From Chloroflexota bacterium (GTDB taxonomy: Bacteria; Chloroflexota; Anaerolineae; DUEN01): a stretch of DNA of 64,000 nucleotides. The position numbers and the translations under genes are program-made. The stretch covers positions 5,034-69,033 of the forward strand of contig JAADGJ010000061.1 of assembly GCA_013152435.1 (NCBI GenBank), given 5' to 3'. Below are positions 30,651 through 50,917 of the stretch, piece after piece (position 1 is the stretch's first letter; each line of letters begins with the position of its first letter). The notes below the pieces were generated by a model, which was not told the DNA's origin, ran no database searches, and worked only from the letters and a program-made list of their open reading frames with translations.

Positions 30651-30916
30651 TCGCAGCTCATTACCTCGCAGGCCGGGACATCCGTCCTGGCCACATGGTT
30701 GATTTCTCTCCCCAAAGGCGTGGCGAACAAGTGAATGAAGAGGATCCTGCGGTCCTGCAGGAGGCGTGCGGATAGGGTGCCCCTGGAGGGCGGGTGTTAT
30801 CCTCGCGTGTAAGGGGCTTCGGGGGTTGTAGGCGCTTGCCGGAGAGCCGGGCGGTGCTCCGGCGGGGCAACCTCCTGAGCCACCGGGTGAAAACGATCCT
30901 ATGGTGTGATAGGGCT

Positions 30917-31714: not shown

Positions 31715-31867
31715 TCGAGGCGGGCGTCTCCCGTTGTGATGGCATTCAGAGATGGGTTTGTTTCGCCTTCCCCAACCAGTTCGCTGGAGAGGAGGTGGTG
31801 TCTTGCAGAGAGATCGCGTGGTCGTCGTATCCGCTTCATACAATCATCACCGAGAGGAGGTCTGAAC

Positions 31868-33541: not shown

Positions 33542-33559
33542 CGTCTGAGATGTGGCGCT

Positions 33560-33590
33560 GGTGGGGGCAGGGCATCGCTTTGCCCCCACC
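33560..33590 (+). promoter_or_regulatory. GC-rich stem-loop between the SBP and permease genes (no U-tract; likely mRNA stabiliser/attenuator)
   Basis: GGTGGGGGCA-loop-TGCCCCCACC, a perfect 10-bp stem. Confidence 0.3.
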
Positions 33591-33610
33591 GGCCCGTTGG
33601 GGTATGGCCC

Positions 33611-36582: not shown

Positions 36583-37589
36583 GCCAGCCTGAGAACGGAT
36601 ATCTGCTGGCGGCGCGAGGGCTGACCAAACACTTTCCGATCTATCGCGGCATCGTCCTGCAGCGGCAGGTCGGGGCCGTCCGGGCCGTGGACCAGGTGGA
36701 CCTCACCATCATGCCCGGCGAGACGCTGGCGTTGGTGGGGGAATCCGGGTCGGGCAAGACCACCATCGGCAAGCTGTTGATCCGGGTCCTGCGTCCTACG
36801 GCCGGGGAGATCTGGTTCGGCGGACAGGATATCGCCCATCTGGACGACGCGGCGTTGCGGCCCGTCCGTCGTCGGATGCAGATGGTGTATCAGGACCCTA
36901 CCTCCTCCTTGAACCCGCGTCGCCGTGTGAAGGACATCATTGAGGATCCGTTGGTGATCCATAAGATCGGCGACGCGGCCCAGCGGGCCAGCCGGGTGGA
37001 GGAGCTGCTTCACCTGGTGGAGCTGCCGGTGGAGTTCGCCTATCGCTATCCCAACGCGCTCAGCGGCGGCCAGAAACAGCGGGTGGGGATCGCCCGGGCG
37101 CTTGCCCTCAATCCGGCCTTCATCGTCCTGGATGAGCCCACATCGGCTCTGGACGTGTCCGTGCAGGCCAAGATCATCGCCCTGCTCAAGCGGTTGCAGG
37201 CGGAGTTAGGGCTGACGTACCTCTTCATCACCCACGATTTGCGGGTGGTGCGGAACCTGGCCACCCGGGTGGGGGTGATGTACCTGGGGCGCATCGTGGA
37301 ACAGGCGCCCACGGAGATCCTGTACGCCAACCCGGCGCACCCCTACACGCGAGCGCTGCTGTCCGCCATCCCGGCGCTGGACGAGGAGGAGCTGGCCGCG
37401 ATCCCCCAGAAGGTCCCTTTGCAGGGCGAGATCCCCAGCGCTGCCCATGTGCCTCCCGGATGCGCCTTTCACCCGCGCTGTCCGGCCCGCTTCGCCCCGT
37501 GCGATCGCGTGGTCCCGCGGGAGAGCGTGGTGGCAGAGGGACATCTCGTGCGCTGCCATCTGTACGACCCCGAGTATGCGCCCGCGTAG
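36579..37589 (+). CDS. peptide ABC transporter ATP-binding protein (DppF-like)
   Basis: Walker A GESGSGKTT, signature LSGGQKQR. GTG start overlapping the previous stop (GTGA). Confidence 0.85.
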   Translation: MSQPENGYLLAARGLTKHFPIYRGIVLQRQVGAVRAVDQVDLTIMPGETLALVGESGSGKTTIGKLLIRVLRPTAGEIWFGGQDIAHLDDAALRPVRRRMQMVYQDPTSSLNPRRRVKDIIEDPLVIHKIGDAAQRASRVEELLHLVELPVEFAYRYPNALSGGQKQRVGIARALALNPAFIVLDEPTSALDVSVQAKIIALLKRLQAELGLTYLFITHDLRVVRNLATRVGVMYLGRIVEQAPTEILYANPAHPYTRALLSAIPALDEEELAAIPQKVPLQGEIPSAAHVPPGCAFHPRCPARFAPCDRVVPRESVVAEGHLVRCHLYDPEYAPA

Positions 37590-37778
37590 CAGCGGGCTGG
37601 GCCCGGGCAGGCCAGAGGCTGTAGCGGAGGCGAGCTGACGAGTCGTCCCCCCGGGCCTTCCCAGGGAAGCGGTCAAAGGCGCCCGTGACGGTCTTTGCCA
37701 CACGTCGCGCTCAGGTGTGGCGCTGCCACCGGCGGAGCGCCTCTACTTAATGTGCTCTGTTTCGGAGGTTGAGCTGTC

Positions 37779-38834
37779 ATGACGTTGATCGACGCCGATG
37801 TCATTCAGGATGCCGTGGTCCGGATGTTGCAGGTGAATATGGGGCTGCGAGCGGGGGAGCGGCTGCTGGTCGTCAGCGATTATCCCAATGAGATGCAGTG
37901 GTGTTCGGCGGATCCGTCGCTGTTGGAAAGCATCTGCCGACGGACGCTGCTGGGGCGGGCTGTGGCGGATATCGCCCGGGATCGCTTTCCCGACTCCTCC
38001 GTGACCTTCCTGGCCTTTCCCTCCACCGGCCAGAGCGGTAAGGAGCCGCCGCCGGATGTGGCGGCGGCCATGCGCCAGGCGCAAGTCGTCATCGCGATCA
38101 CGTCTTTCTCCCTCTCCCACACGGATGCCCGGGAAGGGGCGTGTCGGGCGGGCGCTCGCGTGGCCTCCATGCCGCGCTTCTTGCCGGAGATGTTCGAGCC
38201 GGGCGGGCCGATGGATGTGGATTACATGGCCGTGGAGCGGCGCACCCAGGCCATCGCCCGGGCCATCACCGGGGCGGAGGAGGTACGCGTCACGTCCCCG
38301 GACGGGACGGATATCCGCTTCAGCGTGGCCGACCGGCCGGGACAGGTGGATGCGGGCATTTACGATCGCCCTGGCGCGTGGGGGAATCTCCCGGCCGGGG
38401 AGGCGTACTGCACGCCGGTGGAGGGCTCCGGGCGAGGGCGGATCGTGGTCGTCCCGGGGTGGCACGCTCGCCTGGAGGAGCTCATGACGCTACATATCGA
38501 GAACGGCGAGCTGGTGGCCATCGACGGCGGCGGCCGCGTGGGAGAGGACCTGCGCGATCTGCTGCGCCCGGGCGATCCGTCGTCGCCCTATCGGGAGCGC
38601 CGGAACCTGGGCGAGTTCGGCGTTGGCACAAACCCGAACGCCCGGCGTGTGGATATCACTTTAGAGGCGGAGAAGATCATGGGGACGGTGCATCTGGCGC
38701 TGGGGGATAACTCGCACATGGGCGGACGGGTGAGCGCGGACTTCCACCAGGATTTCGTGGTCCCCAGGGCCAGCTTCTGGCTGGACGGCCGTCCGGTGAT
38801 GGAGAATGGTCAGCTGTTGATCGAGGAGGCGTAA
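37779..38834 (+). CDS. M29-like (aminopeptidase T/AmpS/NicX-fold) family protein, paralogue 1
   Basis: N-terminal pattern ...GLRAGERLLVVSD... and its length (351 aa) fit the aminopeptidase-T-like fold. Assignment is by motif recall, not by search. Confidence 0.45.
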   Translation: MTLIDADVIQDAVVRMLQVNMGLRAGERLLVVSDYPNEMQWCSADPSLLESICRRTLLGRAVADIARDRFPDSSVTFLAFPSTGQSGKEPPPDVAAAMRQAQVVIAITSFSLSHTDAREGACRAGARVASMPRFLPEMFEPGGPMDVDYMAVERRTQAIARAITGAEEVRVTSPDGTDIRFSVADRPGQVDAGIYDRPGAWGNLPAGEAYCTPVEGSGRGRIVVVPGWHARLEELMTLHIENGELVAIDGGGRVGEDLRDLLRPGDPSSPYRERRNLGEFGVGTNPNARRVDITLEAEKIMGTVHLALGDNSHMGGRVSADFHQDFVVPRASFWLDGRPVMENGQLLIEEA

Positions 38835-38839
38835 CGCGT

Positions 38840-39904
38840 ATGGAACTCGCGATTGGCACGGAACCCACCCCGACGTACCTGTCGTTTGAGCTAGCTCGCG
38901 GCGCTCGTCGGCTGATCGAGGACGTGATGCTGGTGAAGCCGGGCGAGAACGTGGTGATCACCGTGGACACCTCCAGTGATTGGCGGGTAGCCGAGGCCAC
39001 GGCCAGGGCCGCGTTCGCGGCGGGCGCCAGCCCGGTCGTCGTCTGGTACGAGGGGCGCCCGGACGCGGTCATGGAGCCCCCGCCTCCGGTGGCGGGAGCC
39101 ATCGCCCGCGCCGATGTGTGGATCGAGTACGCCGTAGCGTACATCCTGCACACGGAGGCGTACAAGGCCGCGTTGGCGAACGGATGTCGCTACATCTGCC
39201 TGACCGGCATGGATGTGGACATGATGGTCCGCACCATCGCCAATGTGGATTATCCCAAGATGATCGAGCTCAGCCACGTGTTGGGCGCGGCCATCGCCCA
39301 GGCGGACGAGATCCGGGTCACCAGCCCGGCGGGCACGGATCTGGTGGCGCGCATGGGCGGACGCAAGATCCGCTACTCCGGCAAGCTGGCGGATACGCCC
39401 GGCGAGCCCATCATGCTGGGCGGACAGATCTCCTGGTGCCCGCTGGAGGAGACCATCAACGGCACGCTGGTGTTCGATGGTGCCCTCTGGCCTCCCAAGG
39501 AGATCGGCCTGCTTCGTCAGCCCGTGCGCCTGACGGTGGAACAGGGGCGTGTGACCCGGGTGGAGGGGGGACCCGAGGCGAAGGTGCTGGAGCGCTGGTT
39601 CGCCTCCTTTGACAATCCGAACATCTATCGCATCGCGCACTACTCGCTGGGGTTCAACCCCGGCGTGACCCGGCCCACGGGGCGCATCGTCGAGGATGAG
39701 CGGGTGTTCGGCTGCATCGAGTTTGGCATCGGCAGCCAGGGGAAGCAGATCGGCGGCCCGGGCTGGGATGCCGGGGGACACACCGATGGCATCGTGCTCA
39801 ACCCGTCCATCTACCTGGACGGCGAGCCGCTGGAGGAGGAAGGGGTGTACGTCCGACCGGACGTCGTGGCCGCCTGTCGCGCGTTGGGCGTGCCAGGGTA
39901 CTGA
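38840..39904 (+). CDS. M29-like (aminopeptidase T/AmpS/NicX-fold) family protein, paralogue 2
   Basis: LVKPGENVVITVD...AAFAAGASPVVVWYEGRPD resembles the M29 N-terminal region. Tandem paralogue of the previous gene. Confidence 0.45.
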   Translation: MELAIGTEPTPTYLSFELARGARRLIEDVMLVKPGENVVITVDTSSDWRVAEATARAAFAAGASPVVVWYEGRPDAVMEPPPPVAGAIARADVWIEYAVAYILHTEAYKAALANGCRYICLTGMDVDMMVRTIANVDYPKMIELSHVLGAAIAQADEIRVTSPAGTDLVARMGGRKIRYSGKLADTPGEPIMLGGQISWCPLEETINGTLVFDGALWPPKEIGLLRQPVRLTVEQGRVTRVEGGPEAKVLERWFASFDNPNIYRIAHYSLGFNPGVTRPTGRIVEDERVFGCIEFGIGSQGKQIGGPGWDAGGHTDGIVLNPSIYLDGEPLEEEGVYVRPDVVAACRALGVPGY

Positions 39905-39913
39905 GTTTGGGGA

Positions 39914-41032
39914 ATGGTGATTATGGGGACCGCAAACAGACTGTACGAGCAGCCACTCACCATGGAGGTCGCCCGCATGGCCGCTTTCGGCGGCGCGGTG
40001 TTGGGCGGCGGTGGCGGCGGTGACATCGAGAATGGGCTTCAGCTGGCGCAACTGGCGCTGGAGATGGGACAGCCGCGCGTCCTGCCGGCGGATTCGCTGG
40101 CGAACGACGTGCTCGTCGTGACCGTCTCCGCGGTGGGGGCCCCGGCCGCGTCGGAGCAGTTCATCAAGCCGATCGATTACGTGGACGCCTTGAACCTCTT
40201 GCAGGAGCACATGGACAAGCCGGTGGGCGGGCTCATTACGAATGAAAACGGCGGCATGGCCACCGTCAACGGCTGGCTGCAATCGGCGCTTTCAGGCCTG
40301 CCCGTGGTGGATTGCCCGTGCAACGGCCGCGCACATCCCACCGGGCTGATGGGGGCGATGGGGCTGGACGAGCTTCCGAACTATGTCTCTCGCCAGGCGG
40401 CGGTGGGTGGTAACCCTCATGCCGGTCGTCGGGTGCGGCTGTATGTGGAGGGCGATCTACGTCGCGCGGCGCGATTGGTGCGCCAGGCCGCGGTGGAGGC
40501 GGGCGGCCTGGTAGGGGTGGCCCGCAATCCGGTCACCATGGCGTATGCGCGGGAGCATGGCGCGCCGGGAGCGCTGGCCCGGGCAGTGGAGGTCGGCCAG
40601 GCCCTGTTGGCGGCGTCCGATCCGGAGGCCGCGGCGCAGGCGGTGGCGGAGACGTTGGGCGGGCGGATCGTCGCTCGCGCCCGGGTTGCCCGGGTGGACC
40701 TGGTCACCCGAGGGGGGTTCGATGTCGGGACCGTGTACCTGGAGGACGATCTGCAGCTGACCTTCTGGAACGAGTACATGACCCTGGACCGCCGGGGGGA
40801 GCGATTGGGGACCTTCCCCGATCTCATCGCCACGCTGGCGGCTGACGAATCCCGGCCGTTGTCCTCGGCGGAGGTGAAGGAGGGGCAGGAGATCTTCGTG
40901 TTGCACGTCCCGCGCTCCCGTCTGCGGTTGGGGTCGGGGATGAGGCGGCCCAACCTGCTGCGGGCGGCGGAGGAGGCGGTCGGCCGACCGCTGGTCTCGT
41001 TCGTGTTCCCCGAGGAGAACTCTGAGCGCTGA
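39914..41032 (+). CDS. DUF917-like protein (glycine-rich GGGGGG loop)
   Basis: AFGGAVLGGGGGGD motif and size (~370 aa) typical of DUF917. Recalled, not searched. Confidence 0.4.
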   Translation: MVIMGTANRLYEQPLTMEVARMAAFGGAVLGGGGGGDIENGLQLAQLALEMGQPRVLPADSLANDVLVVTVSAVGAPAASEQFIKPIDYVDALNLLQEHMDKPVGGLITNENGGMATVNGWLQSALSGLPVVDCPCNGRAHPTGLMGAMGLDELPNYVSRQAAVGGNPHAGRRVRLYVEGDLRRAARLVRQAAVEAGGLVGVARNPVTMAYAREHGAPGALARAVEVGQALLAASDPEAAAQAVAETLGGRIVARARVARVDLVTRGGFDVGTVYLEDDLQLTFWNEYMTLDRRGERLGTFPDLIATLAADESRPLSSAEVKEGQEIFVLHVPRSRLRLGSGMRRPNLLRAAEEAVGRPLVSFVFPEENSER

Positions 41033-41156
41033 TTGGATCAGAAGCACCTGATCGGGAATCCCAGGACGAACCGGCTTCCATTTCCAGTAGGGACGCCGGA
41101 GGATTTCCTGGAATGGTATCGGAGGCAGTTCGCGGAATCAGGTTGAGGGGGGATCT

Positions 41157-42098
41157 GTGACGCTCAAGCAGGCTATAGAAGCGTATGAGCTGTTGGACAG
41201 CGCGCTTGTGGACGGCGATCATGTGGCGGCCCTATTGCATAACCGAGGGCTGACGGTGGAGACGTTCACCGTGGAGGGCGATAGGGGGCGCACGGACTTC
41301 GTTCGGGCCGTCCTGTACGGGGAGCGGGGAAAGCGGACCGGCGGAGATGCCCCCACATTGGGCATCATCGGCCGGTTGGGTGGCATCGGCGCCCGGCCGA
41401 CGGCTCTGGGGCTGGTGTCGGACGCGGATGGGGCGATCACGGCCATCACCTGCGCGCTGAAGCTGGCCGATCTGTGCCGCGCGGGCGATCGCTTGCCGGG
41501 CGACGTGGTCATTGCCACCCACATCTGCCCGCACGCTCCGACGGAGCCGCACGAGCCGGTGCCGTTCATGGGCTCACCGGTGGATATCGCCACCATGAAC
41601 CGGCACGAGGTCGCCGATGAGATGGACGCCATCCTGTGCATTGACACCACCCGGGGGAATTGGGTCATCAATCAGCGCGGCTTCGCTATCTCCCCCACGG
41701 TGATGCAGGGATGGATCCTGAAGGTGAGCGCCGATCTGCTGCGCATCATGTCCTACGTCACCGGGCGACCTCCGGTGGTCTTCCCGCTGAGCATGCAGGA
41801 CATCACCCCCTATGGCAACGGTGTGGATCATCTGAACAGCATCCTGCAGCCGGCGACGGCGACGGACGCTCCGGTGGTGGGCGTGGCGCTGACGGCGGAG
41901 ATACCGGTACCGGGGTGTGCGACGGGTGCCAGCCAGATCGTTGATATCGAGGCCGCCGCCCGGTTCTGCGTGGAGGTGGCCAAGGCGTTCACGCGCGGGG
42001 AGTGCCAGTTCTACGATCCGGACGAGTTCCGACGCCTGGTCGCCCTTTACGGCGAGATGCGCCATCTGCAGACCATGGGGCGCGAGGATGCGGCGTGA
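41157..42098 (+). CDS. DUF1177-like protein
   Basis: ~313 aa. Its position between DUF917-like and AroM-like genes matches a recurrent DUF917/DUF1177/AroM neighbourhood. GTG start with a GAGGGGGG RBS. Confidence 0.35.
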   Translation: MTLKQAIEAYELLDSALVDGDHVAALLHNRGLTVETFTVEGDRGRTDFVRAVLYGERGKRTGGDAPTLGIIGRLGGIGARPTALGLVSDADGAITAITCALKLADLCRAGDRLPGDVVIATHICPHAPTEPHEPVPFMGSPVDIATMNRHEVADEMDAILCIDTTRGNWVINQRGFAISPTVMQGWILKVSADLLRIMSYVTGRPPVVFPLSMQDITPYGNGVDHLNSILQPATATDAPVVGVALTAEIPVPGCATGASQIVDIEAAARFCVEVAKAFTRGECQFYDPDEFRRLVALYGEMRHLQTMGREDAA

Positions 42099-42769
42099 TG
42101 GCAAGGCCTTCTGTGTTGGGGCTCCTCACCATCGGGCAATCGCCCCGGGATGACGTGTTGCCGCAGGTCCTCCCGCATCTGCCGTCGGATGTGCGTATCA
42201 TCCAGGCGGGCGCGCTGGACGATCTGACGGACGAGGAGATCGCCGCTCTGGCGCCCGGCCCGGGCGATTACGTCCTCACGTCGCGGCTGCGGGACGGCCG
42301 CGCGGTGACGATGGCGCGGGAGAGGATCCTGCCGCTGATGCAGGCGCGCATCGAGGCGTTGGAGGCCCAGGGCGCCAATCCGATCTTCATCCTTTGCACG
42401 GGTGAGTTCCCGCCGTTTCGCTCTCGAGCGCTGCTGGTGGAGCCGGAGAAGATGCTGCCGGCTGTCGTGCGCGGCCTGACGGTGCGTCGGCTGGGCGTGA
42501 TCGCACCGCTGCCCGAGCAGCTTGATGCCATGCAGGAGAAGTGGCGTCCGGTATGCGCCGATCTGGCGGTGGCGGCCGGATCGCCCTATGGCCCTAAGGA
42601 ACGGGTCGTCGAGGCCGCGCTGTCCCTGCGAGGGCGGACGGTGGATCTCGTCGTGATGGATTGCATCGGCTATACGGAGGCGCATCGGGCCCTGGTGCGG
42701 GAGCAGGTCGACCGGCCGGTGATGCTGGCGTCGGCCGCGGCCGCACGCGTGGTGGGGGCGCTGCTTTGA
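42098..42769 (+). CDS. AroM-family protein
   Basis: Start reassigned to the ATG at 42098, overlapping the upstream stop (TGATG). LGLLTIGQSPRDDVLP and DCIGYT motifs resemble AroM. Confidence 0.45.
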   Translation: MARPSVLGLLTIGQSPRDDVLPQVLPHLPSDVRIIQAGALDDLTDEEIAALAPGPGDYVLTSRLRDGRAVTMARERILPLMQARIEALEAQGANPIFILCTGEFPPFRSRALLVEPEKMLPAVVRGLTVRRLGVIAPLPEQLDAMQEKWRPVCADLAVAAGSPYGPKERVVEAALSLRGRTVDLVVMDCIGYTEAHRALVREQVDRPVMLASAAAARVVGALL

Positions 42770-42904
42770 GAAGCCTCCAAGAGACGCAAACGGGGAGGCT
42801 CTTTCCTCCCTCATGAGGGGCTTCGGCCAGCATGAAACGTTTCCAGTGCCATTCGCATCTTCGTGGTGAATGAGTCAACGCACTCTCAACCCTCTGGGTG
42901 GTGG

Positions 42905-42943
42905 ATCAGGAGCCGGGGTCTTTGGAGGACTCCGGCTCCTGAT
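42905..42943. promoter_or_regulatory. perfect 12-bp inverted repeat ATCAGGAGCCGG-N15-CCGGCTCCTGAT (hairpin or protein-binding site) downstream of the AroM-like gene
   Basis: Seen directly in the sequence. No U-tract follows it. Confidence 0.3.
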
Positions 42944-43322
42944 TCGCGTGATGCCGCTTCCATCTGTTCGTCTCGGATAGGCTTCTGATCCGACATAAAT
43001 CGGTTGGGTCGATGCAGATGTTACCCGAGATAGGATCGCATCTTCGGGCATAAACCGACAGGAAGTTGTGCCTCGCGTCGCTCCACGGCCGGATGCTCAA
43101 TGACGGCCCTCATCCCCCAGGCCCCCTTCTCCCGGGTTCGAGAGAAGGGGGCTCAACGGTAGAACACCTATGTTGCTTTTAAGCCTCCGGCCTGCGAATG
43201 TGCCGGAAAGCTATCACCACCCAGGGCTGGATGATCAACTGCGTGGGATAAACGTAAGGCCGTCCCCGACGACGCTGCCGATATTCGCTTGTGAAGGCAC
43301 TTGATCAACCAGAGAAAGCAAC

Positions 43323-43351
43323 CTGACAAGAAGGGCATTCCGTGATATCAT
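43323..43351 (+). promoter_or_regulatory. sigma70-like promoter CTGACA-17-TATCAT upstream of the SARP-family regulator gene
   Basis: Followed by a ~220-nt leader containing two strong GC hairpins. Confidence 0.35.
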
Positions 43352-43574
43352 GGGGCTGCCTCCGGTAGGTGGGGTTGAGCACCACGAACCTACCGAGGTG
43401 GCCGCGCCCCGTCAAGTGGGCGCGGCTCGATTTATGACCAGGTCTCGATTCAGTGACCCTGCTCACAACAAGCGTTAAGGATCGAGCAAACCGAAGCACT
43501 TTGGCCGTCAGCCGATCAGACTGTATGATCCGAGATCGCCTCACGAGCCAGGTGGATGTTGGGGAGATAACACT

Positions 43575-46500
43575 GTGCCGAATATTCGCATTCAGGCCTT
43601 GGGCGCTTTCAGTATGTGGCGAGACAGTATCGCGGTTCCCGATGAAGCCTGGCCTACATCAAAGAGCAAGCAGCTCTTCAAAATCTTACTCACCGAGCGG
43701 GGTCATCTTGTTTCGGCAGACCGGCTCATTGAGTATCTCTGGCCCGATCTGCCGCTTAAAAAAGCCCGGAACAATCTATGGGTAACGGTAAGTCAAGCGC
43801 GGCGTGTGTTGCAGCCTGATTTGCCGCCACGGACTCGCTCTGCTTATATCATCAAGCGCGATGAAGGTTATCTGTTTGATCCCCACAGCGACCACTGGCT
43901 GGACGTGGACGCTTTCAGCGATTACCTTCAGACGGCACAACAGGCAGCAGACCCGACCATCCGTATTGAAGCCCTGGAAAAAGCGCGGCACCTTTACCAG
44001 GGCGATTTCCTTGAGGATGACCCCTACGCAGAATGGGCGCTGGCCCCCCGCGATCGGTTACGAGAACAGTATCTAAACCTGCTGGCCGATTTGGCCGAAA
44101 CCTATGCGCAGCAAGAGCAATACCGCCAGGCTATTGGATTGTGTCGCCAAAGTCTCGCCCTCGAAAACAGCCGCGAATCCACCTATCGCCAATTGATGCT
44201 ATACCTCTATTGCACTGGTGAACAACCCGCCGCCCTGCAACTGTACGATGAGGTATGCCAGGTAATGCGGGAGGAAATCGGTGTTGAACCGGCCCCGGAA
44301 ACGAGCAACCTCTTTCACCAGATTCAACGGCGTCAGGTAGTCGGGGTGGACGAAAAGAAGGTCTACCCGCGCTCGGCATCGACGCACATCAGCACTCATT
44401 CGTTGAGGCAAACACCATTTGTAGGCCGCGCCCGGGAATACGGCCAATTGACCGCCATGGTCAACCAGGCCAACCAGGGCAACGGCTGTGTTGTCTTTGT
44501 CGGTGGTGAGCCGGGCATCGGTAAAAGCCGCCTGATGCGGGAGACGGCTATGTTCGCCGGCAAAGAGGGCTTTACCACGCTCTTTGTCCATAGTTACCAG
44601 GTAGAACAGGCCATGCTTTACCAACCCCTGGTAGACCTGGTCCGACATATCAACGAGACATGGCCGGAGCAAATTGCCGGCCTCCCCACCGTATGGCTCA
44701 GGGAAATCGCTGCACTGGTACCGGAAATTGCCGGCACCGCCACAGGTCAGGCCATTGTCCCCGCCAAAACAGACGAAAACCAGCAGGGACGGCTCTTTCA
44801 AGCCATCGTGCATTTGTTGTCGGCCATCGCCGGAGAAAATGGCCTTATGCTCAACGTGGATGACATCCACTGGGCCGATACAGCGACGCTCCAATTTCTC
44901 CACTATCTGGCCCGGCGTGTGTCTGGCGAACGGATATTGCTGGCCTGTACCTACCGCCACGAGGAAGTGACGGCCGATGAACACCTGGCCGCGCTCATTC
45001 ATCATCTCCAACGCGAGCCGCACGTGACCTTCATCTCCTTAAACCGCCTGTCAAGCACAGACATTGATGAACTGCTGGGCGCTCTGGAAACCGTGCCCAC
45101 TACCTGGAGTGAATGGCTCTATAGCGAAACAAGTGGCAACCCATTCTTTCTTGTTTCTATCCTTCAATTGTTGCAGGAACAGGGGGATTTGGGGAAAACC
45201 GCGCCGGCTGACATTCTCTCGACAGAGATCACCTTACCGGAGGCCATTCAGGAGTCGGTGCGGGGACGCTTGCGACAGGCAACGCAGTTGGAGCAACAGG
45301 TGCTGGGCTGGATGGCTGTTTTTGGTCGCAATTTCAGTTTTGCCACGCTGCAAGCCATCACCGGCCAGAGCCAGTTGGATCTGCTGAAGGTGGTAGAGAG
45401 CCTGCTGCAGCGGCAATTGTGGCAGGAAACGGCAGATGGTTACGACTTTAGCCACCACAAAATTCGCGAAGTGGTCTACCACGACCTGAGCGGGGCGCGT
45501 CGAGTTGTGTACCATGGCCAAATTGCAGAGATGCTGGCGCAATCGGCTGAGGACCGCCCGGCACTCTTGGCCCATCATTTTGAACGGGCCGGGAACACGG
45601 GACAGGCCCTGGCCTATTGGTTGCGGGCGGGCGAGAAGGCCCTCGACGCCTACGCCCTGCAACAGGCTGTTCGTCACTATGAGCGGGCCTTGGCCTTAGC
45701 GGAAGGGGCAGCCGACGAGATGGATGCCTACGAAGGGCTGGGCCGGGCCTTCATGTTGCTGGATGAGGTGGCTCAGGCTACGACCGTGTTGCAGCAAGGC
45801 ATCCAACTGGCGGAAGCGCAAGAAGATGACAGCCGTTATGCTCGCCTGTTGTTTGCGCGGGCCCAGCTTGCCAACCGGCAGCACAAAGTTACCACCAACT
45901 ACGTGCGCGCCGCGTTGTCTGCCGCCGAGCGAGCGGGCGATCTGGCTCTGGTCGCTCAAAATCTGCTGCTGCTTACTGAAATCTATGAAGGCCAGGGGGT
46001 TCTTGACAATGCCCTGGCCACCATTACCCGGGCCCAAACCATCAGCGACGAGTTGGGCGATGTCCACCTGGCAGCCCGTATCCGCAATGAGATTGGCTTT
46101 GTCCACACCCAGCGTGGCGAGTTCGCCGAGGCCATCGATATCGTAAAGCAGGCTCTAGAACCGTTAGCCCAGCTCGAAGACCGGATGTCACTGGCCTATT
46201 CCTGGAATCTGTTGGGACGCGCCTACGGCGGGTATGGTGACTACCAGCAAGCCATCGAGTCCTTTCAGCGCAGCCGGGTGGAAGCAGGAGCGGTCGGCGA
46301 CGGCTACCTCATTGTCCAGACACCCAATATGTTGGGCTGGCTGTACCGTGAATTGTGTGCCTTTGAACAGGCCCTGCAATTTGACCAGGAGGGGGTTGCC
46401 GTGGCCCAGGAGTGGGCTAAGGAGCCGCCGGAAGTTAGCGCCCGGCTCAATGTCTGTCTGGATGTGCTACACCTGGGCGAACCGGACCGGGCCTTGGGGA

Positions 46501-47003
46501 TGTTGGCCCAAATTCAGGAGCGGATCGACGCCGGGGTGTTTGGTTTCCACGCCTGGCGCTGGCGGCTGCGCATACTCCACGCGCGGGGGTTGTGTTTGCT
46601 GGCCATAAACCAACCCGCTGCTGTGCTCTCGCTGGTGGAGGAGGGTTTGACGCTAGCGGAGTCGGCCACGGTGCGCAAGTATGTTGCCCTCTACCATGGG
46701 TTAACAGGTTTGGCTCTGGCCAGGTTAGAGCGAACGGCCGACGCCATCAGCGAACTAGAAACCGCTGTGCAGTTGGCCGATGCCATCCACTATCAACCCC
46801 TTTGCTGGCAAGGTCGCGCCCATTTGGCGGCCTTGTATATCGATGTTGAGCGTCCTCAAGACGCCAAAACAAGCTTAACCGTTGCCCATCAAATCATTCG
46901 GCACATCGCCGATCACCTCACCGATGAAATCCTCCGAAATACCTTCTTAAATGCTGTGCCGGTGCAAGCAATTATCCGGCAACATGATAACTTAATATCT
47001 TGA
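43575..47003 (+). CDS. AfsR/SARP-family regulator: N-terminal wHTH + BTAD, central NB-ARC/AAA ATPase, C-terminal TPR array (STAND NTPase)
   Basis: The N-terminal 250 aa match the SARP DNA-binding/BTAD pattern (ALGAFSMWRD..., LLTERGHLVSADRLIEYLWPD, LYQGDFLEDDPYAEWA). Walker A VVFVGGEPGIGKSRL. Then a long TPR-like repeat region. GTG start with a GGGGAG RBS. GC is clearly lower than in the flanking genes. Confidence 0.8.
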   Translation: MPNIRIQALGAFSMWRDSIAVPDEAWPTSKSKQLFKILLTERGHLVSADRLIEYLWPDLPLKKARNNLWVTVSQARRVLQPDLPPRTRSAYIIKRDEGYLFDPHSDHWLDVDAFSDYLQTAQQAADPTIRIEALEKARHLYQGDFLEDDPYAEWALAPRDRLREQYLNLLADLAETYAQQEQYRQAIGLCRQSLALENSRESTYRQLMLYLYCTGEQPAALQLYDEVCQVMREEIGVEPAPETSNLFHQIQRRQVVGVDEKKVYPRSASTHISTHSLRQTPFVGRAREYGQLTAMVNQANQGNGCVVFVGGEPGIGKSRLMRETAMFAGKEGFTTLFVHSYQVEQAMLYQPLVDLVRHINETWPEQIAGLPTVWLREIAALVPEIAGTATGQAIVPAKTDENQQGRLFQAIVHLLSAIAGENGLMLNVDDIHWADTATLQFLHYLARRVSGERILLACTYRHEEVTADEHLAALIHHLQREPHVTFISLNRLSSTDIDELLGALETVPTTWSEWLYSETSGNPFFLVSILQLLQEQGDLGKTAPADILSTEITLPEAIQESVRGRLRQATQLEQQVLGWMAVFGRNFSFATLQAITGQSQLDLLKVVESLLQRQLWQETADGYDFSHHKIREVVYHDLSGARRVVYHGQIAEMLAQSAEDRPALLAHHFERAGNTGQALAYWLRAGEKALDAYALQQAVRHYERALALAEGAADEMDAYEGLGRAFMLLDEVAQATTVLQQGIQLAEAQEDDSRYARLLFARAQLANRQHKVTTNYVRAALSAAERAGDLALVAQNLLLLTEIYEGQGVLDNALATITRAQTISDELGDVHLAARIRNEIGFVHTQRGEFAEAIDIVKQALEPLAQLEDRMSLAYSWNLLGRAYGGYGDYQQAIESFQRSRVEAGAVGDGYLIVQTPNMLGWLYRELCAFEQALQFDQEGVAVAQEWAKEPPEVSARLNVCLDVLHLGEPDRALGMLAQIQERIDAGVFGFHAWRWRLRILHARGLCLLAINQPAAVLSLVEEGLTLAESATVRKYVALYHGLTGLALARLERTADAISELETAVQLADAIHYQPLCWQGRAHLAALYIDVERPQDAKTSLTVAHQIIRHIADHLTDEILRNTFLNAVPVQAIIRQHDNLIS

Positions 47004-47164
47004 TTGCCGTTTTATTTATCCCCCGCTTGATAAATCCTATTTAGTCCCCATTAAGTCGCGTCTTCTATAATTGGGTCAAGTTCAATCAAACGCAGGGCAT
47101 CTTCTCAGGAATCCCGAGATCGAGAAGATTACTCAACCATTCAACCATCAAACTGGAGAAGGAG

Positions 47165-47818
47165 ATGGCTGTGACGAATATCAAACAATCTGCCGAGAAT
47201 GCGGCATTAACCCTAAATCATGTTGCGCTCGCCAAGCACAAAGGAGTAAATGCACCTCATCCGCTCGTAACCCAAATCCGTTTTGCTCGCAGTGAATTTG
47301 CTCGCTGTTTAGATGGGCTCTCTGATAAAGACGCTCGCCATCGCATTATGCCCATGAACTGCATAAGTTGGATGGTTGGCCATCTGGCAGCCCAAGAGCA
47401 ATACTATTTTGTGTTTTTCCCCCAGGGTGAAGTGCCACACCCCCAATTGAATAAACTGGTCGGCTTCGGCCATCCCGCGTCGACGCCGCCCCTGGCCGAG
47501 ATGTGGCAAATCTGGCACGACATCACCCGAGCCGCGGATGCTTTCCTGGATGCGCTAACCACGGAACAATTGTTGATGCATCTGGAGCAGGAGATTGACG
47601 GATTTGAAGGCTCCTTATTCGGGACGGCCAGCAAGAAGGTTTTGGCACAAAGTAGTGTCCGCTCAAGTGAAAGCGTGGGCACCAGGATGCTTCGCACGAT
47701 CTATCATTACTTTTTTCACACGGGCGAAGCCCATGCCATTCGCCAGCAATTAGGACACCCGGATTTGCCGTATTTTGTAGGAGATATGGAGGCGGCTGTT
47801 TACCAGGGTCATCCCTGA
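47165..47818 (+). CDS. DinB/YfiT-like (DinB_2) family protein
   Basis: Four-helix-bundle DinB-type motifs (MVGHLAAQEQYY, HTGEAHAIRQQLG). RBS AAGGAG. Lower-GC codon usage like the SARP gene. Confidence 0.45.
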   Translation: MAVTNIKQSAENAALTLNHVALAKHKGVNAPHPLVTQIRFARSEFARCLDGLSDKDARHRIMPMNCISWMVGHLAAQEQYYFVFFPQGEVPHPQLNKLVGFGHPASTPPLAEMWQIWHDITRAADAFLDALTTEQLLMHLEQEIDGFEGSLFGTASKKVLAQSSVRSSESVGTRMLRTIYHYFFHTGEAHAIRQQLGHPDLPYFVGDMEAAVYQGHP

Positions 47819-47835
47819 TCCTATCACAGCCAAGA

Positions 47836-48215
47836 TGTCTAAGGGGTCTCCCTCAATCACCAACTCCACAGGGGATGGTGGTGGAGGGGATCGCCCCTCC
47901 ACGGAAAACCCCACTTTTCCTGCCTGCACCTGCCTTTCTCGGTCCTTTCCGAAGGGCCCAGGCCGAGGCCAGGCAGGTTGAAGGCAGAAGAAGGGCTTTT
48001 TCCGGGGGGGCGGTAGCCCCTCCGAAGAAGCCTATTTTCAGCCCCTCACCTGCCCCGTGGGGCCGGAGGCCACCGGCCAAAGCCCCAACCAGGCAGGGAA
48101 AAGGCGAGAGAAAGCGTTTTTCTGCGGAGGGGCTTCCCCTCGGAGGGGCTTCCCCTCCGCACCTCCCCTTTCGGGTGTGACCGCCCGTGGAGGGGAAAAG
48201 CGACAGGCGGGGGCC
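47836..48215 (+). repeat. copy C (longest) of the dispersed multi-hairpin repeat family
   Basis: Same orientation as copy D. Contains GGTGGAGGGGATCGCCCCTCCAC and a tandem duplication GGAGGGGCTTCCCCTC x2 (48126-48157). The overlapping ORFs 47875..48180 and 48046..48375 are rejected. Confidence 0.55.
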
Positions 48216-48420
48216 TCGCCCACGCTGTTCCGTTGATGCGAATAGGGCGCCCCACCGGGTCGCCCTTATCCGAAACGAATGGCGCGGCCCATGTTTCTTT
48301 CACCACGCGAAGATCAATAACTGAAAGAGGAGCGAAAATGTCGGTGATACACATCAAAGGATCTGTCAAACGCATAGGATGAGATCAATCGTCGCATTGG
48401 CTTTCGCAAGGAGATGAGAG

Positions 48421-48660
48421 ATGATCAGATGGAGCGACGTCCGAGGGAGGCAGGAGCACTACAGGGAACTGGTACGCGAGGCAGAGGAGTATCGTCTCGC
48501 GCAGCAGGCCATAAACGGATCGGGAGGATATGACTCTCCTCTTCGTGCCGCGTTCGTATCGTTGAGATCTCTATTGGGAAAAACCATTTGGCAACGCAAT
48601 GCATACCTTCGACAGGTAACCAAGGCTATGCACGCTGCCTGGTTCTCACTCAAACTCTAG
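48421..48660 (+). CDS. small hypothetical protein (79 aa)
   Basis: AAGGAG RBS 7 nt upstream of the ATG. Sits in the low-GC stretch and has no recognisable family. Confidence 0.3.
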   Translation: MIRWSDVRGRQEHYRELVREAEEYRLAQQAINGSGGYDSPLRAAFVSLRSLLGKTIWQRNAYLRQVTKAMHAAWFSLKL

Positions 48661-48912
48661 CTATCGGACACTTTTGAGTGGGCGATGGCCCCTGTCCTCT
48701 GATATGCTGATTGCCAAACCCATCAGCGTCAGAGGGACAGGATGGCCATCATCCACCTACATCGTGCCGTATTGGACGGGGTCCGACGGCTTCGACCCAA
48801 CGAGCGCGTGACACGGGTACGAAACATGGGCTGGTGAATGGCAAGGATCTTCATGGCCCGCAGTATGCATCTGAGCCATATCGCTCGAGGGCTCCCGGGT
48901 CCCAGCCAGAAG

Positions 48913-49104
48913 CTAGCGGTTGTCCCGCCTACTCCACAATGCGCACGTCCACGCCAACAATGCCCCCTCATGAGCAGCAACCCATTGCCCTATCCCGTAG
49001 GGTGTGCTCTCACCAAGAAGAATCCCAAGAGCAATCAAGACCAGAATGAGCTCCCAGGCATGCCGTTTCCCTCGCACTTGCCGGGGATCCGGAACCCCTT
49101 TCAA
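48913..49104 (-). pseudogene. N-terminal fragment (~63 aa) of an ISAs1-family transposase (DDE_Tnp_1-associated domain): an IS remnant
   Basis: VPDPRQVRGKRHAWELILVLIALGILLGESTPYGIGQWVAAHEGAL matches the ISAs1/H-repeat transposase N-terminal pattern PDxRQ..K.H.L.DIL.L.I.A...G......I..F...H. The ORF stops after 63 aa and no DDE core follows. Confidence 0.45.
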
Positions 49105-49186
49105 CGCTTCTACAAGCGTGTTCTATTCATGTAGAACCATCGGCCCGCTCCTCCTTCAATGTGTTCTTTTCCAAGGGCGTGTCTGA

Positions 49187-49436
49187 AGATTGACCAGCTA
49201 GGTGCCTGAGGGTCTCCCTCAGCTACCAGCTCCACAGGGGGAGGTGTGGAGGGGAAACCCCCTCCACGGAAATCTCACTTCTCCGGCTTGCACCTGCCTT
49301 TCTCGGCCCTTTCCGAAGGATCCAGGCCGAGGCCGGGCAGGTCGAAGGCAGAAGATGGACTTTTTCCGGAGGGGCTCCGCCCCTCCGGGCCTCCCCACAG
49401 CAGAAGCAATGGCATTTCTCAGACGCGCTCTAAAAG
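49187..49436 (+). repeat. copy D of the dispersed multi-hairpin repeat family
   Basis: Termini GGCGTGTCTGAAG ... TCTCAGACGCGCTC are inverted. Palindromes GTGGAGGGGAAACCCCCTCCAC (49245-49266) and CCGGAGGGGCTCCGCCCCTCCGG. About 85-90% identical to the reverse complement of copy A. Confidence 0.6.
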
Positions 49437-49588
49437 GAATTTACCGGCGGTTCTTCCCTCTATCACCTCGCGACTCTGAAAAGGCCCTGGGGCGCGTGGG
49501 GCCTCGCGCTGGCGCTCCTGACCCGCTATGCTATAATCCCTGTAGTTTGTCATCATCGATGCGCGGCCGCGAGTAGGAGGGGAAGGGG

Positions 49589-50917
49589 ATGAACGTCACG
49601 GAACTCAAGCAGTTGCTGGCTGATGAGCTCAATCAGCGCCGAGAGGAGGGATGCGACGTCTCCGACTGGGAGCCGCGCGTGGCGGCACTGGATGCGGAGA
49701 CGGTGCCCGACCTTCTGGCATTGTACGATGAGCTGATGAAGTTGGTGCCGCGACGGGATTTCCCGTACGAGGAGCCGTCGGATCTGCCGACCATCCGGTC
49801 TCTGCGGCCGTCGGGGCCGCGCCATATCCCGGCGACCCCGGATAAGGCCCGATTGCAGGATCGTATCCTAGGCGCGTACCTCGGCCGTTGCGCGGGCTGC
49901 AACCTGGGCAAGCCGGTTGAGGGGTGGTCTCGCGAGAAGATCCGTCGCTATCTGGAGATCGCCGGGGAGTATCCGCTTCGCTCCTATTTCCCCGTGATCG
50001 ACCCGTTCCCGGAAGGGTTGGAGCTGCACGAGAATTATCGGGAGACGGCGCGAGGACGTATCCGCTGGATGGCTCGAGACGACGACATCGATTACACGAT
50101 CCTGGGGCTGCACTGTCTGGAGACCTACGGATTGGACTTCACGACGGAGAATGTGGGGGAGACCTGGCTGCAGCTGCTGCCTTACCATCAGGTATATACG
50201 GCGGAGCGGGTGGCGTATCGCAATCTGGTGGAGGGGTATGATCCACCCCTATCGGCCACGCGCTACAACCCTTACCGGGAGTGGATCGGCGCTCAGATCC
50301 GCGCCGACGGCTTTGGCTACGCGGCGCCGGGGCTCCCTGAGGTCGCCGCCGAGTTCGCCTATCGGGACGCCGCGCTCAGCCATGTGAAGAACGGCATCTA
50401 CGGCGAGATGTGGGTGGCCGCCATGCTGGCGGCGGCGTTGGTCGCACCCGGCCACACGATGGAGGATATCCTGCATGTGATCGAGGTGGGCCTGAGTGAG
50501 ATACCGGCGAACAGCCGGGTGGCGGAGGCCATCCGGGATGTGATGCGCTGGCGCGAGGAGACGGATGACTGGGAGGAGGCGTGGGAGCGCATCCACCGCA
50601 AGTACGGCCATTACCATGGCGTGCATACCATCAACAATGCCGCCCTGGTCACCCTGGGCCTGGTGTACGGCGCGGGGGACTTTGAAAGGACGATCTGCAT
50701 CGCGGTGATGGGGGGATGGGACACCGATTGTAACGGGGCCACGGCCGGTTCCGTGATCGGCGCCATGATCGGAGCGGACGCGCTGCCGTATAAGTGGGTG
50801 GGGCCGCTGAACAACACGGTGCGCAGCATGGTCGCCGGCTACGATTTCTCCCGCATCACGGATCTGGCCGGGCGTTCGCTGGCCATCGCCGAGGAGGTAT
50901 GGAATCGCTGGAGGTGA
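49589..50917 (+). CDS. ADP-ribosylglycohydrolase-family protein (DraG/ARH-like) with a ~100-aa N-terminal extension
   Basis: Hallmark GGWDTDCNGATAGSVIGAMIGA (second metal-binding motif) and GAYLGRCAG... (first motif, non-canonical: it lacks the usual Asp). RBS AGGAGGGGAAGGGG. Confidence 0.7.
   Translation: MNVTELKQLLADELNQRREEGCDVSDWEPRVAALDAETVPDLLALYDELMKLVPRRDFPYEEPSDLPTIRSLRPSGPRHIPATPDKARLQDRILGAYLGRCAGCNLGKPVEGWSREKIRRYLEIAGEYPLRSYFPVIDPFPEGLELHENYRETARGRIRWMARDDDIDYTILGLHCLETYGLDFTTENVGETWLQLLPYHQVYTAERVAYRNLVEGYDPPLSATRYNPYREWIGAQIRADGFGYAAPGLPEVAAEFAYRDAALSHVKNGIYGEMWVAAMLAAALVAPGHTMEDILHVIEVGLSEIPANSRVAEAIRDVMRWREETDDWEEAWERIHRKYGHYHGVHTINNAALVTLGLVYGAGDFERTICIAVMGGWDTDCNGATAGSVIGAMIGADALPYKWVGPLNNTVRSMVAGYDFSRITDLAGRSLAIAEEVWNRWR

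Follow-up and report, generated by a model that had tools for sequence, protein, structure and literature searches.

An AfsR-like regulator and a DinB-type gene form a conserved module in a compositionally atypical segment of a Chloroflexota genome

Results

Composition and gene content of the segment

The window analysed here is a 64-kb stretch of Chloroflexota DNA. Between an AroM gene on the left and an ADP_ribosyl_GH gene (ADPRGH) on the right, both assigned by Pfam, it holds a segment (42770–49508) with a GC content of 56.8% (0.568), compared with 64.4% (0.644) for the remainder of the window. Windows of 500 nt between 42750 and 49500 range from 0.47 to 0.62, whereas those further left lie at 0.63–0.72. 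The two main genes of the segment, a SARP-type regulator gene and a DinB-like gene, have third-position GC contents (GC3) of 0.65 and 0.55, about 6 and 9 standard deviations below the mean of 33 host genes (0.831, sd 0.031), and the non-coding portions and the DinB-like gene are AT-richer still than the SARP gene. After normalisation for base composition, tetranucleotide usage is also aberrant: the correlation with the window profile drops to 0.33 (z = –4.4), making 42.77–49.51 kb the sole strong outlier across the 64 kb. The compositional anomaly, first proposed in a sequence-only reading from low GC and AT-rich third positions, is real. A second dip in GC3 (0.64) occurs in a TPR gene elsewhere in the window (20136–22115, reverse strand).

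Pfam upheld the earlier calls of a SARP-STAND regulator, a DinB-like gene and an ISAs1 transposase remnant. The regulator gene (43575–47003, forward strand) encodes a large AfsR-like SARP of 1142 residues with Trans_reg_C, BTAD, AAA_16 and TPR matches, arranged as an OmpR-type wHTH, a BTAD, a P-loop NOD (AAA_16) and TPR repeats. The Walker A motif (G311–K317) and D430 are invariant over 24 homologs. The protein shares its domain order with the large SARP-NOD-TPR regulators, among them AfsR of Streptomyces coelicolor, and AfsR is its best match among solved structures (8k60, E = 4e-14); the other top PDB sequence matches are AfsR entries 8jke and 8hvr as well as EmbR. However, the likeness to AfsR extends over no more than approximately 340 residues from the N-terminus, the score with the NCBIfam AfsR equivalog model is 96.8 bits where the cutoff is 1430, and the F/Y-HD switch motif of AfsR reads F625-x-H627-x-K629. 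Whereas AfsR hosts are Actinomycetota, the present regulator belongs to a Chloroflexota genome. It is a further member of a known SARP regulator family and as such of moderate interest.

The DinB-like gene (47165–47818, forward strand) encodes a 217-residue protein of the DinB/YfiT fold resembling mycothiol S-transferases, with Pfam scores above the cutoffs for both MST (38.9 bits) and DinB_2 (28.9 bits). A PDB sequence search with this protein found no relative. Its AlphaFold model (pLDDT 79.5) gave M. tuberculosis mycothiol S-transferase (8f5v; Rv0443), DR_1065, DR0053 and BstA as best matches, the predicted four-helix bundle corresponding to those of 8f5v, 2ou6, 6iz2 and 5wk0. Residues H73, H181 and H190 are invariant in the subfamily and H185 is nearly so, in line with this family. 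Nevertheless, the structure-based identity to these proteins is just 12–19%, and the protein belongs to a separate and highly conserved subfamily, in which C48 and C66 are invariant and the motif YHYFFHTGEAH occurs. It has an insertion of some 40 residues as well as a lineage-specific 30-residue N-terminal extension that most homologs lack. The product is probably a metal-dependent thiol S-transferase.

A conserved SARP-type promoter links the two genes

Between the two genes lies a predicted SARP box (47040–47057, forward strand) with the direct repeats TTTAGTC-CCCA-TTAAGTC at 11-nt periodicity. A –10 hexamer read from the sequence (TATAAT, 47066–47071) follows 8 nt past the 3' repeat, and no –35 box accompanies it. 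This layout obeys the rule described for SARP promoters (PMC10936776): direct repeats with an 11-bp spacing, of which the 3' one is 8 bp away from the –10 element, and no good –35 element. Boxes of two to three repeats with the same spacing and the same 8-nt distance to the –10 were found at 16 distinct loci (consensus CATTAAGTTCT x2–3), including loci whose homologs are just 47–54% identical; the equivalent –10 in homologous loci is TAGAAT or TATGAT. The box is the single match in the window, and a degenerate pattern gave 20 matches in 1.18 Mb of scanned sequence, consistent with the 16 loci plus duplicates. The promoter segment 3' of the SARP stop codon is conserved despite differences in the next gene, which is DUF1326 in locus L013 and orf74 in L016, and an OsmC gene recurs downstream in L008, L013, L016 and L017. 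Taken together, 47040–47071 is predicted to be an activator-dependent promoter of the DinB-like gene, which is most likely the target of the AfsR-like regulator.

Thirteen loci include both a SARP homolog with an identity of 47% or more and the sequence 3' of it, and each has a DinB homolog directly downstream; SARP homologs below 45% identity have no DinB homolog downstream. Many further pairs of SARP and DinB homologs come from contigs of equal length. The SARP and DinB genes are a conserved module of a regulator and its predicted target. This module, the main biological content of the segment, was overlooked in the sequence-only reading.

The regulator gene itself is preceded by a candidate promoter from a consensus scan (43501–43529, forward strand; TTGGCC, 17-nt spacer, TATGAT), whose –10 reads TATAAT in L008 and L013. 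The earlier description of long leaders with consensus-like promoters was not confirmed: the scan returned three sites against 3.0 expected, although this one is conserved in relatives, and the leaders measure only about 38 nt (SARP gene) and 87 nt (DinB-like gene). Homology among four differing genomic contexts starts no more than about 10 nt before the –35 box, so that the conserved module begins, on its left, at approximately 43491.

Flanking non-coding sequence, repeats and insertion-sequence remnant

To the left of the module lies a non-coding spacer (42770–43490, 57% GC) whose internal ORFs have no Pfam match, with hairpins at 42905–42943, 43121–43152 and 43401–43426. The spacer is confined to the window lineage: it occurs in L007 and L076, relative to which it carries a 41-nt deletion, and is missing from L008, L013 and L016, where homology begins at about 43491. 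The perfect 12-nt palindrome noted earlier in this region exists (CCCTCATGAGGG, 42808–42819) but is at chance level, since 29 perfect palindromes 12 nt or longer occur in the window.

The right-hand part begins with an extended copy of a multi-hairpin repeat (copy C, 47844–48170, forward strand), which is present but more diverged in L007 and L076 (91–93% identity). It continues with ORF79 (48421–48660, forward strand), an orphan of doubtful coding status that has no Pfam or PADLOC match and retrieved only itself and low-complexity matches from 1.84 billion representative proteins. The 12-bp inverted repeat previously seen at about 48692–48743 is part of a long imperfect hairpin (48684–48752; –44.8 kcal/mol, z = –6.9) that is 100% conserved in L007. 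An N-terminal remnant of an ISAs1-type transposase follows on the reverse strand (48913–49104, about 55 residues; DDE_Tnp_1_assoc, 36.5 bits, E = 5e-9). Its DDE domain is gone, the truncation being visible in a six-frame reading, and L007 has a further 73-nt deletion within it. The segment ends with 350 nt (49159–49508, forward strand) that contain repeat copy D (core 49177–49433), and are lacking in L007; the core matches 12046–11795 on the reverse strand at 86.6% and folds with z = –7.6. Copies C and D are in direct orientation and 84.5% identical over 181 nt. They do lie on the right side, as originally placed, but the proposed bracketing of the island fails: both lie right of the DinB-like gene and flank just the ORF79/IS-remnant segment.

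Distribution among relatives

Each of the three near-conspecific genomes, L007 (96% identity) and L076/L006 (98–99%), carries the island at the same position, and hence it is not strain-specific. The sister lineage L077 (80–86% nucleotide identity) is collinear from 24.8 to 30.4 kb and then continues straight to 49508, which shows that the island is absent there. Accordingly, the variable region ends on the right at 49508/49509; the L006 contig begins at 49509. L077 lacks the whole 19 kb from 30.45 to 49.507 kb, including a host-like cluster of 65.5% GC (30450–42769, forward strand; IclR, an Opp/Dpp-type ABC transporter, NicX, S-Me-THD, DUF1177 and AroM). With this cluster also absent, L077 provides no empty site for the low-GC part by itself. 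The suggested adjacency of the AroM and ADPRGH genes in genomes without the island was never observed. At the segment borders we found no direct repeats above chance, att-like or otherwise, and no terminal inverted repeats; neither a tRNA nor an integrase was found for the segment.

Compared with L007, the island has diverged by 1.4% and its flanks by 4.8% (Fisher p = 1.5e-14), a contrast in favour of acquisition. Against the closer relative L076/L006, the values are 0.7% for the island and 0.6% for the right flank, and the low divergence from L007 may be ordinary recombination patchiness. Amelioration from AT to GC was not seen in the polarised substitutions, which number 10 vs 11 for the window branch and 6 vs 22 for L007.

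Beyond these genomes, homologous module loci belong mostly to low-GC Chloroflexota (42–53% GC), in which module GC3 equals that of the flanks. In higher-GC hosts (the window, L013, L021 and L016), the module is always a patch of lower GC3. Across hosts its GC3 spans 0.43–0.66, in part tracking the host. The nearest module relatives, L008, L013 and L016, share 89–92% nucleotide identity, lie elsewhere in genome context and are likewise lower-GC3 patches. Four differing upstream sequences are represented, and the flanking genes in L013 are unrelated. DinB and SARP similarities are incongruent among loci, which points to recombination inside the module. In L013, a fragment of the toxin gene PemK adjoins the module copy.

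Discussion

We consider it fairly probable that 42.77–49.51 kb as a whole is a horizontally acquired, mosaic accessory segment containing a regulatory module native to low-GC genomes. It forms the right end of a 19-kb stretch that varies between lineages in a genome of about 64% GC, and its self-contained functional core would lie at approximately 43491–47830. In this core, a constitutive promoter would drive the AfsR-like SARP-NOD-TPR protein. Upon a signal sensed via the NOD/TPR part, the SARP domain may bind the 11-nt direct repeats at 47040–47057 and recruit RNA polymerase to the –35-less promoter, thereby switching on the gene for the putative thiol S-transferase. At related loci, OsmC and further small stress genes likewise follow this promoter. 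Whereas AfsR acts on afsS and antibiotic clusters, the predicted target here is the adjacent enzyme gene, and no biosynthetic cluster lies near the regulator. The pairing of an AfsR-like switch with a DinB-type gene is a useful, fairly ordinary result.

The module is probably native to lower-GC, Anaerolineae-type Chloroflexota and most likely reached the higher-GC lineage through horizontal transfer or recombination, in a common ancestor of the three near-conspecific genomes sampled. The remaining sequence (two structured-repeat copies, an orphan ORF, a hairpin and an IS remnant) would be decaying junk. The horizontal acquisition originally proposed retains the support of composition, absence from L077, the differing module contexts, the agreement of more distant module homologs with their lower-GC flanks and the IS remnant; bracketing repeats, an att site, a tRNA, an integrase and amelioration do not contribute to it.

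A clearly less likely alternative is vertical inheritance of a native block, with AT-richer codons that reflect properties of single genes, for instance rarely expressed regulatory or TPR-rich ones, and with contexts that differ through poor synteny. The shared locus in all three closest genomes, the missing integrase, tRNA and att site and the lack of an amelioration trend suit this reading, as do the equally low GC3 of the TPR gene at 20136–22115 and the partial tracking of host GC3 by the module. Moreover, synteny around the ADPRGH gene decays fast in this group and is lost at 77–83% amino acid identity, so that a different context is weaker evidence than in better-conserved genomes. However, codon usage specific to such genes does not extend to the aberrant GC-normalised tetranucleotides, nor to the even AT-richer non-coding parts and DinB-like gene, which is not a TPR gene. 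In low-GC hosts the module does not fall below its flanks, which argues against a constant gene-specific offset. The gap in L077, the incongruent DinB and SARP similarities and the IS remnant and PemK fragment beside module copies also speak against vertical inheritance and favour acquisition.

Like classical genomic islands and integrative elements, the segment is atypical in GC, codons and k-mers, varies in presence among relatives and is associated with an IS remnant. Unlike them, it has no integrase, tRNA target, flanking direct repeats or excision signature and is fixed in the three closest genomes; it is likely not a classical integrative island. A mobile element proper is very improbable, whether the multi-hairpin repeat is taken to bound an integrative island or composite transposon or the segment is taken to have been carried in by the ISAs1-type element. 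The two direct repeat copies next to an IS remnant, the polymorphism of the copy-D segment relative to L007 and the breaks in relatives' contigs at this point would fit such an element, but neither a target-site duplication nor terminal repeats were found, and only about 55 transposase codons are left. The copy-D indel reaches beyond the repeat core at either end, and a second deletion stands out close by in L007, so that loss in L007 is as likely as insertion here. For the SARP-DinB part, the mobile-element reading is largely refuted: no repeat copy lies on its left, L008, L013 and L016 lack both the repeat and the IS remnant, and among relatives the repeat matches in L007 alone.

Least probable of all is a small defence island around an Avs-like anti-phage sensor, which the STAND/NLR-type architecture with its C-terminal TPR sensor, the variable neighbourhood, the IS remnant and the toxin fragment might suggest, since PADLOC returned a weak TPR match and no Avs model, the protein contains no nuclease or other killing domain and, unlike in Avs and bacterial NLR-like proteins, its N-terminal "effector" is a DNA-binding, transcription-activator SARP domain with AfsR as best structural relative and with a conserved SARP-type promoter and enzyme gene downstream.

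A new AfsR-like regulator and its predicted target

The core of the low-GC island at 42770–49508 is a two-gene module, consisting of a large regulator gene (43575–47003) and a DinB/MST-like gene (47165–47818). The regulator begins with an OmpR-type winged-helix DNA-binding domain (Trans_reg_C, residues 28–101; 29.0 bits, cutoff 26.2) followed by a BTAD domain (residues 109–251; 92.8 bits, cutoff 22.1), which is the arrangement of the SARP family. As in large SARPs, a P-loop ATPase of NOD/STAND type with both Walker motifs, A and B (AAA_16, residues 281–451, 77.5 bits), and C-terminal TPR repeats (TPR_12, 67.8 bits) complete the protein. The GEPGIGKS motif (G311–K317) and D430 are invariant across 24 regulator homologs. 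The best PDB matches are AfsR (8k60, 8jke, 8hvr) and EmbR. The NCBIfam equivalog model for AfsR orthologs (NF053617), however, scores 96.8 bits against a cutoff of 1430 and covers the N-terminal 322 residues only. Judged by its sequence, the regulator is thus AfsR-like in architecture and not an AfsR ortholog. An F/Y-HD ('MHD') motif in the NOD is a mark of the AfsR-like NLR switch (bioRxiv 10.64898/2026.09.02.748808). In the region expected for this motif, a candidate counterpart, F625-x-H627-x-K629 (YDFSHHKIREVVY), is invariant, with the Asp not conserved. An anti-phage STAND (Avs) system is not supported: PADLOC returned only a generic TPR match (E = 6e-5), with no match to a defence-system model, and there is no killing effector domain.

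Beyond the close relatives, regulator homologs are at most 54% identical, and all named ones are from Chloroflexota or Anaerolineales except for one partial Halomonas sp. entry. An alignment of the regulator homologs, used to scan metagenomes, yielded 60 loci. Wherever the homolog was at least 47% identical and its 3′ flank was present, a DinB/MST-like gene lay immediately 3′ of the regulator (13/13 loci), whereas loci with weaker homologs showed no such gene downstream. The DinB-like protein is conserved at 65–88% identity, compared with 47–54% for the regulator.

The region between the two genes has a common layout in all 16 distinct sequences: direct repeats of 11 nt, in two or three copies (consensus CATTAAGTTCT), with 8 nt between the end of the 3′ heptamer and a –10 hexamer (TAGAAT, TATAAT or TATGAT); a –35 box is lacking. 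In the window, the predicted SARP box is composed of TTTAGTC (47040–47046), a CCCA spacer and TTAAGTC (47051–47057), and an 8-nt spacer separates the 3′ repeat from the –10 element TATAAT (47066–47071). The arrangement matches exactly the rule published for promoters that depend on SARPs, in which direct repeats are 11 or 22 bp apart and the 3′ repeat lies 8 bp from the –10 element (PMC10936776); the predicted DinB promoter follows it in the window and in the 16 distinct loci. A degenerate form of the repeat pattern matched 20 times in the 1.18 Mb examined, consistent with these loci and their duplicates, and once in the window.

The regulator gene has a conserved constitutive promoter of its own (TTGGCC, 17 nt, TATGAT; 43501–43529), with a leader of ~38 nt. 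By analogy with AfsR, the NOD/TPR part would hold the regulator off until a signal is received (PMC10936776; bioRxiv 10.64898/2026.09.02.748808). The SARP domain, we infer, would then bind the 11-nt repeats and bring RNA polymerase to the DinB promoter; this activation and the chemistry of the DinB protein are likewise predictions.

The core adds a new member, found across Chloroflexota, to the large SARPs of the AfsR-like family, and both its operator and its target are predicted. To our knowledge, AfsR-like NLR-type transcription factors have been studied almost only in Streptomyces, and their activating signals are not known. The regulons of the Streptomyces proteins are complex. Here, an AfsR-like protein of uncultured Chloroflexota, a single adjacent and phylogenetically conserved promoter and a conserved enzyme gene form what is predicted to be a clean regulator–operator–target triplet.

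In the lineage of GCA_018263655.1, the regulator is split into a 739-aa ORF (SARP and NOD) and a 398-aa ORF (TPR; locus L013, 10001–13429, and also L014 and L015). The split is real, since it is seen in three independent assemblies, and leaves either a pseudogene or a sensor that is naturally in two pieces.

Cargo genes and predicted output

The product of the gene downstream of the regulator belongs to the Pfam families MST (38.9 bits, cutoff 27) and DinB_2 (28.9 bits, cutoff 24.8). A sequence search found no PDB relative of this protein. Its predicted structure (pLDDT 79.5) has the four-helix-bundle fold, with M. tuberculosis mycothiol S-transferase, DR_1065, DR0053 and BstA as best matches; the top Foldseek matches are all DinB/MST/BstA structures (probability 1.00). 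By sequence conservation, H73, H181 and H190, candidates for a metal-binding His triad, are invariant and H185 is nearly so.

The cargo behind the conserved promoter differs between loci. The window has DinB alone, and the nearest module relatives carry DinB-OsmC-orf69 (L008), orf74-DinB-orf105-OsmC (L016) and DUF1326-DinB-PpoB2-OsmC pseudogene (L013). OsmC is found repeatedly downstream of this promoter, namely in L008, L013, L016 and a further homologous locus, L017. Taken together, the MST/BstA-type fold matches and the recurrent OsmC make thiol-dependent detoxification or an oxidative-stress response our best guess for the module's output. The conserved target hints that the sensed signal may relate to the same processes.

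The SARP-NOD-TPR/DinB pair could be a widespread, horizontally exchanged, Chloroflexota-specific inducible detoxification cassette, in which the NLR-like factor would sense an electrophile or oxidant and the promoter would serve as a 'cargo slot' for small stress genes (DinB-type thiol transferase, OsmC, DUF1326, PpoB2). We put this forward tentatively and consider it rather unlikely as a whole. If true, the regulator would be the first of AfsR type outside Actinomycetota with a defined, conserved one-promoter regulon, and therefore a tractable system for finding the ligand of an AfsR-like NLR.

In the window and L008, the DinB gene has ~50 nt in common with the OsmC gene of L008 and L013, covering the ribosome-binding site and the first ~12 codons and encoding M-x-x-T-x-IKQS-x-E (window 47155–47201; L008 3998–4055 and 4740–4790; L013 16109–16166). 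Most DinB homologs begin 30 residues later, with MPHPLV, and the internal ATG is lost in the window. The common ends look like the product of recombination at the 5′ ends of cargo genes. Some homologous loci hold two DinB-like genes, which lie in tandem in L023 (6228–7453); in L026 (1659–2219, minus strand, and 6715–7290) the second copy is upstream on the opposite strand.

Composition and gene content of the island

Measured in 500-nt windows, GC content is 0.47–0.62 across 42750–49500 and 0.63–0.72 in the 7 kb to its left, in agreement with the low GC seen in the sequence-only reading; overall, 42770–49508 has 56.8% GC and the remainder of the window 64.4%. Third codon positions are indeed AT-richer, with a GC3 of 0.65 in the regulator gene (1142 codons) and 0.55 in the DinB-like gene, compared with 0.831 (sd 0.031) for the 33 other genes of the window. 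Sliding tetranucleotide analysis at 3 kb singled out the island as the sole strong outlier in the 64 kb: the L1 distance rises to z = +3.4, and the base-composition-normalised correlation with the window profile falls from ~0.87 to 0.33 (z = –4.4). As compositional islands go, the segment is unexceptional, being a small accessory patch that carries no mobility genes.

Domain matches bear out the earlier gene calls across the island and its flanks. DUF1177 (41157–42098) and AroM (ending at 42769) lie to the left, the ADP-ribosylglycohydrolase gene (ADPRGH, starting at 49589) to the right, and the module is followed by the orphan ORF79 (48421–48660) and a DDE_Tnp_1_assoc fragment (48913–49104, minus strand). 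This fragment is a truncated ISAs1-type transposase, as had been read, retaining ~55 N-terminal residues that cover positions 5–55 of the 88-position N-terminal domain (36.5 bits). No DDE domain was found in any frame of the remnant, which rules out an intact ISAs1-family insertion sequence.

Presence in close relatives and absence from a sister lineage

Relatives were obtained through homolog searches; exact-protein matching returned none for the window's ADPRGH, DinB, SARP and 39914–41032 genes. Three near-conspecific assemblies have the island at the identical locus. GCA_024277095.1 (L007) is 96% identical and spans window 41100–49937, and two contigs of GCA_054014295.1 (L076 and L006; 98–99% identical) end at 49039 and start at 49509, respectively. 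L007 is without 49159–49508, which holds copy D of a multi-hairpin repeat, and without 73 nt within the transposase remnant. The copy-D indel extends past the repeat core at either end, and the other gap is plainly a deletion, which makes loss from L007 and insertion in the window equally likely. The SARP–DinB stretch is 1.4% diverged from L007, compared with 4.8% for the flanks (Fisher p = 1.5e-14). However, divergence from L076/L006 is 1.4% in the left flank, 0.7% in the island and 0.6% in the right flank, which weakens the case for the island having diverged less than the whole genome and leaves the L007 figure only suggestive.

A sister lineage (L077; Logan SRR3723048), with an ADPRGH of 86% protein identity, is collinear with window 24773–30423, including UvdE and a small minus-strand gene. 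Homology picks up again at 49508 and continues through ADPRGH and AhpC. Window ~30.45–49.507 kb (19 kb) is therefore absent from L077, where the genes on the UvdE side are followed directly by the ADPRGH promoter. The missing 19 kb comprise the low-GC island and a host-like cluster with 65.5% GC (IclR, Opp-type ABC transporter, two NicX, S-Me-THD, DUF1177 and AroM). The right junction, 49508/49509, coincides with the end of the L007 gap and the start of contig L006, just upstream of the conserved ADPRGH promoter. An adjacency of AroM and ADPRGH when the island is absent, as the sequence-only reading had envisaged, was never observed, L077 being without the AroM cluster too; a search for AroM contigs gave, among the matches listed, only relatives of 34–42% identity, of no use for synteny. 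ADPRGH loci at 77–83% identity (L009–L012) have yet other neighbours and no island-side synteny, and the locus is thus variable; as L009, L010 and L012 differ in content here, 30450–49507 is a plasticity hot spot.

Origin of the module

We favour horizontal acquisition of the module from a Chloroflexota lineage of lower GC, at a time predating the split of the three sampled genomes. Distant homolog loci have 42–53% GC, and in these the module and its flanks have the same GC3. Where the host is richer in GC, the module invariably forms a patch of lower GC3, as in the window (host GC3 0.83), L013 (0.73–0.79), L021 (about 0.75) and L016 (0.73). The nearest module relatives (L008, L013–L015 and L016) are 89–92% identical in a star-like pattern, and their homology to the window extends only from ~10 nt upstream of the –35 element (43491) to about 47104–47140. 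Upstream sequence is different in each; the L013 module lies among pyrimidine-biosynthesis and peptidase genes and adjoins a PemK fragment.

Atypical composition, absence from L077 and the other contexts of L008, L013 and L016 thus support the acquisition that had been proposed, but the hallmarks of an integrative island were not found. Atypical composition and variable presence do go together here, as expected of a genomic island. Nonetheless, no recombinase domain was detected among the ORFs, no tRNA gene was found, and direct repeats or att-like sites at the borders did not exceed chance, all of which argues against an integrative genomic island. Three further points count against acquisition: the block is fixed among the nearest genomes, synteny is poor in the group generally, and polarised substitutions reveal no AT-to-GC bias of the kind expected from GC-ward amelioration (10 vs 11 on the window branch, 6 vs 22 in L007). 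A transposon bracketed by the multi-hairpin repeat is rejected, as is the bracketing of the island described in the sequence-only reading, because copies C and D both lie on one side, to the right of the DinB gene.

The segment is a mosaic accessory segment; the initial observation is partly confirmed and its interpretation partly supported. The window DinB is 82–88% identical to DinBs that lie beside 51%-identical regulators or whose neighbouring regulator is not known, and 70–74% identical to those beside 89–90%-identical regulators. Such a mismatch in similarity points to recombination inside the module. With transfer as the favoured reading, the case illustrates the movement of a module between Chloroflexota of different GC content, with the cargo swapped behind a conserved promoter.

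Repeats and minor features

The multi-hairpin repeat family is roughly 250 nt long with 82–87% mutual identity, and has copies at 11795–12046 (minus strand), 15900–16048 (plus), about 47844–48170 (copy C, plus) and 49177–49433 (core of copy D, plus). Copy D has a folding energy of –144 kcal/mol (z = –7.6), and the repeat has no Rfam match. Compared with L007, the 350-nt segment with copy D is an indel, at which the contigs of a 99% relative break. In its behaviour the family resembles MITE- or REP-like elements. Rfam returned no family for the whole window at gathering thresholds, nor for 42.7–49.65 kb at E ≤ 1.

A good ribosome-binding site precedes ORF79, and conservation of this ORF in close relatives is 99%. 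No homolog was found among 1.84 billion representative proteins, which makes ORF79 an orphan or a non-gene; a comparison with orf74 of L016 showed the two to be unrelated. The 12-bp inverted repeat noted earlier exists as part of a longer hairpin (48684–48752, z = –6.9). This hairpin is long and imperfect (~30 bp), begins roughly 25 nt past ORF79, has no T-run and is 100% conserved in L007 despite variable surroundings. The 12-nt palindrome at 42808–42819 loses its special standing as 1 of 29 such palindromes in the window. Similarly, the consensus-like promoters amount to 3 sites against 3.0 expected by chance, and the consensus scan for promoters and terminators was at or below chance. Compared with L007 and L076, the left spacer of the window (43001–43250) carries a deletion of 41 nt; in L076, substitutions are concentrated around a hairpin at 43121–43152.

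Elsewhere in the window, a 32-nt perfect palindrome, AAAACGGAGGGGACGGCCGTCCCCTCCGTTTT, lies at 11759–11790 directly beside repeat copy B and has the form of a bidirectional terminator. A second, weaker compositional outlier is the gene for a 659-aa TPR-repeat protein (20136–22115, minus strand), with a GC3 of 0.64 and a tetranucleotide z of about 1.5.
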